From the IMG/VR virus record IMGVR_UViG_3300012943_000011, positions 1 through 50,302 of that record: a stretch of 50,302 bases of DNA, one strand, 5' to 3'. Position 1 is the first letter of the stretch. Each line of letters opens with the position of its first letter. Below the pieces are notes generated by a model. That model worked only from the letters and a program-made list of their open reading frames with translations. It was not told the DNA's origin and did no database searches. This DNA comes from a virus. Its lineage: Duplodnaviria > Caudoviricetes. Made by a program: the position numbers and the translations under genes. Shown one piece after another: positions 19,170-19,260 of this stretch.

Positions 19170-19260
19170 TGCCCGAAATGGGAGTTGCACCCATGTTTCC
19201 GCTTTACCTTAGTCTGGCCAGACTTTTTTAGCGGCGTCCTAACTGCTAGACGATTCAGGC
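19170..19260 (-). ncRNA. Glu/Gln-type tRNA-like RNA with a 26-nt anticodon loop
   Basis: GCCTGAA/TTCGGGC acceptor, GTCT...GGAC D-arm, CCGCT/AGCGG stem, ATGGG-TGCAACT-CCCAT T-arm. Confidence 0.7.

Follow-up and report, generated by a model that had tools for sequence, protein, structure and literature searches.

A well-formed, non-decoding tRNA-Glx look-alike in the tRNA gene array of a temperate tailed phage

Since the work on T4 and T5, the tRNA gene clusters of phages have been known to encode tRNA-shaped stable RNAs. In the T5 record (NC_005859), RNA1 and RNA2 are annotated as 'tRNA-like stable RNA with unknown functions' and RNA3 as 'putative tRNA-like RNA'. In the T4 record (NC_000866), the small stable RNAs rnaC (species 1) and rnaD (species 2) lie beside the tRNA genes. 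The present analysis deals with element A, a 91-nt gene of the glutamate/glutamine (Glx) tRNA type located at 19170..19260 on the minus strand of IMG/VR virus record IMGVR_UViG_3300012943_000011. The complete record of 50,302 bp, which carries direct terminal repeats, was analysed and is referred to as the window. Element A was delimited by its sequence, its minimum free energy (MFE) fold and the family model R1 described below. It is a real, well-formed tRNA-Glx look-alike that does not decode, and it joins the known, unexplained class of phage tRNA-like RNAs.

Element A is placed in a tRNA cluster, between tRNA-Leu and tRNA-Ile, as the T4 and T5 RNAs are in theirs, and it combines a tRNA-like acceptor stem and T arm with an anticodon loop that cannot decode. 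RNA1 and RNA2 of T5 resemble it in their position inside a tRNA cluster and in their tRNA acceptor stem and T arm; in their folds, as in that of element A, the anticodon stem encloses an internal loop followed by another hairpin. They differ in being longer (144 and 125 nt) and in having ordinary UUC T-loops, whereas element A is a compact Glx cloverleaf with an AG/UGC elbow. T4 rnaC likewise ends in a T arm and an acceptor-like pairing, but it has large hairpins in place of the D and anticodon arms, and T4 rnaD differs in folding no better than shuffled sequences (z = -0.83). A search of the T4 and T5 regions with R1 gave no match at E <= 0.01. What unites the phage tRNA-like stable RNAs is their architecture; they do not form a single homologous family.

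Two further groups of RNAs were compared. Ordinary phage tRNA-Glu(CUC/UUC) and tRNA-Gln(UUG) genes (for example L208, L210, L216 and L215) share with element A the D arm UCGUCUAG...AGG, the U13-G22 pair, the T arm and a variable region of 4 nt. Their anticodon loops are of 7 nt, with U33 and a purine at position 37, and ARAGORN calls them, whereas element A has a 26-nt loop and is not called. The tymovirus tRNA-like element (RF00233) has the same elbow letters, with a CAGU D-like loop and GGGUGCAACUCCC, and was the only Rfam family matched by element A (20.5 bits, E 0.3, under the gathering score of 40 bits); the match arises because the elbow letters agree. The tymovirus element has a pseudoknotted acceptor end and is located at the 3' end of an RNA virus, in contrast to the paired acceptor stem of element A and its place in the tRNA array of a DNA phage.

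Read on the minus strand, element A begins with G1 at 19260. The 5' strand of the acceptor stem (GCCUGAA, 19254..19260) pairs in seven of seven positions, one of them U-G, with the 3' strand (UUCGGGC, 19171..19177), which is followed by the discriminator A at 19170; CCA is not encoded. The D arm (19236..19251) reads GUCU-AGCAGUUA-GGAC, with a U13-G22 pair and with AG replacing GG in the D-loop. The anticodon stem is formed by five Watson-Crick pairs between CCGCU (19230..19234) and AGCGG (19199..19203). It closes the 26-nt loop AAAAAAGUCUGGCCAGACUAAGGUAA (19204..19229), which is laid out as AAAAA-AGUCUGGCCAGACU-AAGGUAA and contains the perfect 14-nt palindrome AGTCTGGCCAGACT (19211..19224, reading alike on both strands). 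As RNA, the palindrome can form a 5-bp hairpin with a GGCC loop. A variable region of 4 nt, AAAC (19195..19198), leads to the T arm AUGGG-UGCAACU-CCCAU (19178..19194). Stems and loops were assigned from sequence and fold, the D and T arms additionally from the alignment of relatives, and the variable region from sequence and alignment. Every stem is intact, with 21 pairs of which 2 are U-G. The cloverleaf is the MFE fold of element A (-31.3 kcal/mol, z = -3.3), and 1 of 200 shuffled sequences folded as well. The original prediction, made from the letters of this interval, had described a Glu-type tRNA body, the 26-nt loop, the palindrome, the CCGCT/AGCGG stem and the TGCAACT T-loop; all were recovered at the same places, on the minus strand.

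A canonical anticodon loop has 7 nt with U33 and a purine at position 37. The loop of element A, with 26 nt, is of another form and contains neither U33 nor a usable anticodon. That element A is non-decoding, as had been proposed, follows directly from its sequence. With default settings ARAGORN did not call element A, and the Rfam tRNA model RF00005 gave no match to it even at E <= 10. With introns allowed and a relaxed threshold, ARAGORN returned an arbitrary 'tRNA-Thr(agt), 19-nt intron'. This call corresponds to the proposal that element A is an interrupted tRNA, in which the extra 19 nt are an intron and are spliced out to give a working tRNA. Reading of the loop showed that none of the possible contiguous deletions leaves a 7-nt loop with U33, because the loop begins with AAAAAAG and ends with AAGGUAA, and no excision in one piece leaves U33 together with a purine at 37. 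The 5-bp hairpin is surrounded by an internal loop of 5 x 7 unpaired, A-rich bases and not by a bulge-helix-bulge motif. A loop of 26 nt is too short for a group I intron (about 200 nt or more), and neither the group I families nor any other intron family matched at element A in the Rfam scans, in agreement with the initial reading of a loop with no U33, anticodon or group I intron. No joint inside element A was seen in four sequencing runs, although the contigs cannot prove absence. A spliced tRNA is very improbable. As a canonical loop cannot be regained by any single deletion, more than one event reshaped the loop, and all stems stayed perfect meanwhile.

The D/T elbow of element A has an unusual form, and this form was surveyed in 115 ARAGORN-called tRNAs from eight phage-type arrays (L009, L022, L201, L208, L210, L214, L215 and L216). 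Of 28 tRNAs whose T-loop starts with UGC, 26 had a D-loop with AG in place of GG, and of 68 whose T-loop starts with UUC, 67 had a GG D-loop. All 15 tRNAs of the L216 array had the UGC/AG form. Three UUU T-loops likewise occurred with D-loops devoid of GG. The distribution of the UGC/AG combination suggests that A18-G55 has taken the place of the textbook G18-psi55 contact in a covarying manner. The elbow of element A, judged from its letters, is intact in this variant form because its AG D-loop matches its UGC T-loop. The UGCAACU T-loop is no mark of mimicry; ordinary phage decoders use the same elbow. No paper on an A18/G55 elbow was found in a literature search, most subscription journals lying outside its reach. 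The AG/UGC elbow is a separate lead and may distinguish phage tRNAs from host tRNAs. Element A also has U11-A24, U13-G22 and A46 and lacks position 47, features which we take to be identity elements of the glutamyl-tRNA synthetase (GluRS) of E. coli and use as a lead only.

Relatives were searched with a gapped pattern made of the start of the D arm and the T arm, the gap admitting a normal or an enlarged anticodon arm. The pattern matched 4 stretches in IMG/VR, 16 in metagenome contigs and 2 in 185,579 species genomes. Before alignment, L201 (tRNA-His according to ARAGORN) and L202/L213, L217, L219 and L221 (no fit to a Glx cloverleaf) were left out, and L204, L205 and L207 were dropped as identical to L203; the final alignment comprised 14 rows including element A. 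The acceptor, D and T stems were paired in 98.7% of 224 cells. Cells changed on both sides numbered 61, compared with 20.8 +/- 3.0 in shuffled alignments, and the covariation score was 0.762 compared with 0.193; neither value was reached in any of 500 shuffles. Canonical loops were present in seven rows, all called by ARAGORN (Glu CUC three times, Glu UUC, Gln UUG and CGC twice). A Glu or Gln anticodon (CUC, UUC or UUG) was thus read in 5 of the 14 rows; element A has none. The covariance model R1, built from the 14 rows, gave 47.6 bits for the phage's own tRNA-Gln, which is an independent figure, and 70.4 bits over positions 1-72 for element A, which is a seed row and scores highly by construction. 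Element A carries the features of the lineage, namely the D arm UCGUCUAG..AGG with U13-G22, the 4-nt variable region and the T arm GGG-UGCAACU-CCC. Judged by sequence comparison, its body is Glx-type and descended from an uncatalogued lineage of phage Glu/Gln-type tRNAs. The earlier description as a 'Glu-type' body holds and becomes more exact as Glx-type, given relatives with CUC, UUC and UUG anticodons and the score of the tRNA-Gln on R1.

In the other seven rows, element A included, the anticodon loop was non-canonical and the stems were intact. The loops measured 26 nt in element A, 13 nt in L200, 12 nt in L209 and 8 or 6 nt in L203 and L206; two further rows had 7-nt loops without U33. 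The acceptor stems, which lay outside the search pattern, were paired in the non-canonical rows, with pair 1 in L203/L206 and a single pair in L211 as exceptions.

Among the relatives, the L203 group comes nearest to element A in body. It consists of four contigs of an unrelated phage with 41% GC; tblastx of this phage against the window gave nothing at E < 1e-4. The group and element A share the D arm, the variable region AAAC and the T arm, with one compensatory change from A-U to G-C, and the discriminator A is followed by CUAU in the L203 group and by ACUAU in element A. The L203 relative is non-canonical too: its MFE fold shows a stem of 6 bp and a loop of 6 nt. Its element showed 0 differences in 71 nt when compared with a 10%-diverged strain, whereas the same strain pair differed by about 9% in the upstream coding region and at 5 positions in about 115 nt of non-coding flanks. 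A second tRNA shape of 129 nt is encoded on L203 (3048-3176, minus strand; z = -4.68); an internal loop and a 10-bp hairpin sit on its anticodon stem, and ARAGORN calls it tRNA-Gly(CCC) with a 39-nt intron.

The main rival explanation is that element A is a dead gene, a recently inactivated tRNA-Glx whose loop was wrecked by an insertion or a template switch, the intact stems then meaning that the damage is young. The original prediction had named as its own refutation that the homologs are ordinary tRNA-Glu genes and this copy a unique, unexpressed insertion mutant, and this was half borne out. Ordinary tRNA-Glu and tRNA-Gln homologs exist, the loop is unique among everything searched, and the nearest syntenic phage (G001) is without the gene. 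The phage already has a tRNA-Gln, and perfect palindromes can come from template-switch mutation. On the other hand, seven of the 14 rows combine a non-canonical loop with an intact body, six of these being independent relatives of element A, and one non-canonical relative is conserved between diverged strains. The loop of element A underwent more than one change and its 21 stem pairs and elbow bases none. The neighbouring element B and its counterpart B' in G001, described below, indicate that this phage group retains tRNA shapes unable to decode. Death of the gene is a possible but doubtful explanation.

The palindrome is unique in the genome: a search permitting up to 3 mismatches gave 2 matches, the palindrome itself and one site with 3 mismatches, against 1.4 expected. 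Palindromes of at least 14 nt arose in 3 of 20,000 shuffles of the loop of element A. Genome-wide, 14-bp palindromes were near chance, with 9 seen and 5.5 expected from dinucleotide shuffles. In silico, a dimer formed through a 14-bp duplex was 20.7 kcal/mol better than two hairpins, which is true of any palindrome. The original prediction had suggested a dimerising RNA or a nuclease or synthetase decoy, roles that here stay conjectural. Two explanations start from these data. In one, the tRNA body is a scaffold that merely presents the insert, and the palindromic hairpin with its A-rich flanks is a protein-binding site or a handle for dimerisation. It gains from the rarity of such palindromes among the shuffled loops, from the predicted stability of the dimer, and from T5 RNA1/RNA2 and the second L203 element, which also bear hairpins in the anticodon arm. 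It is made improbable by relatives that share the body and not the insert, by the weakness of the hairpin (-4.0 kcal/mol) and by the lack of a second palindrome or half-site copy in the genome.

In the other explanation the palindrome acts at the DNA level, by binding a dimeric protein, by protecting the gene from a homing endonuclease that targets tRNA genes, or, on the plus strand, as a weak hairpin of the terminator type with T6 behind it. Self-complementarity extends to the two central bases, which an RNA hairpin would not need, TTTTTT follows the hairpin on the plus strand, and the records of T4 and T5 contain homing endonucleases in the tRNA clusters. Against this stand a silent terminator scan, the lack of nearby plus-strand genes to terminate, the lack of a second site in the genome and the near-chance number of 14-bp palindromes; a DNA-level site has a low probability.

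The stretch was also searched for in other sequencing runs. Two runs from other studies carry it with 0 differences (X2 record 15, corresponding to 19107-19256, and X4 record 32, corresponding to 19091-19241), the contigs reaching only 27 and 12 letters, respectively, past the 5' edge of the loop. The stretch is no quirk of a single-sample assembly. Run X2 is labelled RNA-Seq and was judged to be probably DNA. In X2 and X4 the array region was covered and the flanking genes were uncovered; a DNA run has the same pattern, so coverage is uninformative on expression. In run X1 a joint from 18171 to 19211 was seen with 21 letters on the shorter side, and it was read as cross-matching between Glx-type D arms of another organism. 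Scans for sigma-70 promoters and terminators reported none at element A.

Searches for closer homologs covered several data sets. The exact 18-mer of the D arm had 0 matches in IMG/VR, and the exact 17-mer of the T arm was found in 33 IMG/VR stretches, none of which had an upstream part like that of element A. In 11 of these 33 (L004, L012, L016, L017, L018, L020, L026, L029, L030, L032 and L034) the T-arm match belongs to a shared small element, the hairpin AUGGG-UGCAACU-CCCAU inside a 6-bp stem CGUGUU/AACACG, which sits just past a terminator-like hairpin at a gene end and resembles a tRNA minihelix. A blastn search of elements A and B against 113 loci returned the T-arm word only, and no homolog of either element was present in 80 loci with a HAD gene like the one in the array. 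With the neighbouring proteins as anchors, no close relatives were found in IMG/VR, and none of five more distant terminase relatives had any tRNA gene.

Three other roles were considered and rejected. Two open reading frames (ORFs) overlap element A and have no Pfam or PHROG match, which disfavours a coding role. A tmRNA was not called by ARAGORN at default settings; at an 80% threshold, two overlapping calls with unidentified tags were obtained, spanning several tRNA genes. A phage attachment site (attP) is disfavoured by the T-loop of element A, which is not host-like: neither of the two matches of the gapped pattern in the 185,579 species genomes is an ordinary host tRNA, one lying in a 13-tRNA array of a metagenome-assembled genome (MAG) and the other not being tRNA-like. 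The integrase gene, 8 kb from element A, also disfavours attP.

Our tentatively preferred reading is that element A is a functional, non-decoding mimic of tRNA-Glx, of the kind of the T5 and T4 tRNA-like stable RNAs. Element A would be transcribed within the tRNA array, excised by host tRNA-processing enzymes and provided with CCA; this processing is proposed because element A has kept an intact acceptor stem, T arm and D/T elbow. The RNA cannot decode: where the anticodon loop should be, it has an A-rich internal loop that ends in a closed 5-bp hairpin. On this reading the gene would most likely be retained for its useful tRNA-Glx body, which as an uncharged, uncleavable mimic would occupy proteins that recognise such a body. 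Candidate targets are a tRNA-cutting defence nuclease of the host or GluRS, and the sealed, extended anticodon arm would make element A uncuttable and unchargeable. The analysis itself establishes the anatomy, descent and intact fold of element A and the repeated occurrence of non-canonical loops among its relatives; expression, processing and the decoy role are inferred.

Phage tRNAs escape host anticodon nucleases through changes in the anticodon loop, according to the abstracts of three studies (eLife 2023, PMC10264068; PARIS, PMC11464382; retron, PMC11555353). By these abstracts, the likeness to element A is an alteration of the anticodon loop in a conflict over tRNA, a setting in which a decoy makes sense; the difference is that those phage tRNAs still decode, whereas element A cannot. 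No paper on non-decoding tRNA decoys in phages was found in the literature search, within the reach described above for the elbow.

A bolder form of the preferred reading would have element A, and probably element B too, work as anti-defence RNAs, with a nuclease or GluRS binding element A and being unable to cut or charge it, with two copies possibly dimerised through the palindrome, and with the repeated loss of canonical anticodon loops in this tRNA lineage selected and not due to decay. This fuller version is unlikely.

Several points weigh against a functional mimic. We know of no function for the tRNA-like RNAs of T4 and T5. G001, the only readable syntenic relative (terminase 79% identical), is without element A. 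The searches turned up no diverged version of the 26-nt loop, hence there is no covariation or conservation evidence for the loop; its copies in other runs, being 100% identical, are uninformative on selection, and no RNA-derived run with the stretch is on record. The loop hairpin is weak, as 111 of 3000 shuffled loops folded equally well at -4.0 kcal/mol, and a perfect palindrome can arise through mutation alone. Furthermore, only exact D-arm and T-arm motifs satisfied the search pattern, and the set of relatives is thereby biased towards intact bodies.

The window represents a temperate tailed phage by its gene content, which includes genes for a large terminase, a portal protein, tail proteins, an endolysin, an integrase, an S24 repressor-like protein and a GcrA-like protein. 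The best cultured match of the terminase was to Brevundimonas phages (52% identity); this match and the GcrA-like gene hint at an alphaproteobacterial host. For a small ORF at 45040-45273 (minus strand), the hairpin domain of Acb2/Tad1, a family of anti-defence sponges, scored below threshold (24.6 bits, cut-off 27). The RNA gene array is encoded on the minus strand in the order tRNA-Leu, spacer, element A, element B, tRNA-Ile, HAD_SAK_2 gene and tRNA-Gln. Its first gene is tRNA-Leu(UAA) at 19375..19463, and tRNA-Ile(UAU) follows element B at 18893..18967; both were identified with ARAGORN and Rfam. The tRNA-Gln(UUG) at 18105..18178 was identified with ARAGORN, Rfam and R1 and has a D arm similar to that of element A. 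The array of G001, a phage of the same clade as the window, is syntenic, with the order Leu-B'-Ile-Trp-Gln, and lacks the HAD gene too.

Between tRNA-Leu and element A lies a structured spacer of 114 nt (19261..19374, minus strand) that folds into three hairpins (z = -2.97; 0 of 200 shuffles equal). The spacer ends with CUAUUAU, which abuts element A, and the same CUAUUAU precedes the first tRNA-like gene in G001. The spacer of G001 (L197 534-625, minus strand) is also strongly structured (z = -4.90). Both spacers have a terminal long hairpin with the base AAUAG/CUAUU, followed by AU and then by the first tRNA-like gene.

Element B (18977..19164, minus strand) is a non-decoding gene of class-II-like tRNA shape, delimited by ARAGORN with introns allowed, by its fold and by its counterpart in G001. 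It has an 8-bp acceptor stem, a 3-bp D stem, a UUCAACU T arm, the anticodon arm CCAGC-GGGUGGA-GCUGG without U33, and a structured variable region of about 125 nt. The counterpart B' (L197 440-533, minus strand) has 94 nt, a 6-nt non-decoding loop GCAUAA and a 22-nt variable arm. Compared by eye, B and B' have the same architecture and a similar D arm, and their stem sequences differ yet are paired; a MAFFT alignment of the two is not structure-aware and was left unused. The ARAGORN call of element B as 'tRNA(CUA) with a 103-nt intron' is less likely than the class-II-like shape, which is preferred because B' has the same shape without the insert.

The position of element A in this array raises the explanation that it is only a processing signal, a tRNA-shaped cut site for RNase P and the 3' enzymes that punctuates the array transcript, as t-elements punctuate transcripts in plant mitochondria. 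The acceptor stem, T arm and elbow, which are read by those enzymes, are intact in element A, but the real tRNA genes and element B already give cut sites every 100-200 nt and leave no need for another signal here; such a role is rather improbable.

The array also contains a HAD_SAK_2 phosphatase gene (18130..18810, minus strand; Pfam PF18143, E 1.3e-22), a family described in Pfam as 'HAD domain in Swiss Army Knife RNA repair proteins'. The protein has the DxD motif known from active HAD enzymes, which is conserved among the homologs. Homologs align to residues ~69-226 only of the 226-aa ORF, and the true start of the gene is, from this alignment, probably later than the annotated ORF start. 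The nearest relatives, 77-78% identical, were found only in Logan assemblies (contigs of 48-51 kb). The Logan contigs of 47-51 kb that encode HAD proteins P0002-P0004, P0007, P0008, P0013 and P0015 probably represent sister phages. Within IMG/VR, tRNA genes were located within 3.5 kb of a HAD homolog in 11 of 80 loci. Homologs also occur in T5-like phages, one of them annotated as 'RNA repair protein'. In two phage arrays near HAD genes, ARAGORN called a tRNA with a 4-nt anticodon (tttg; L098 5011-5088) and one with a 2-nt anticodon (ac; L099 346-416). PADLOC and NCBIfam gave no match on the neighbouring genes. As support for a function of element A, which we tentatively regard as a mimic, the presence of an RNA-repair-type phosphatase in the array is circumstantial.

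Among the tRNA-shaped stable RNAs encoded in phage tRNA clusters, element A is a compact and cleanly defined example. Its relatives include ordinary tRNA-Glu and tRNA-Gln at one end and several independent non-decoders at the other, and they form a natural series for the question whether such RNAs are decoys in the conflict over host tRNAs or debris.

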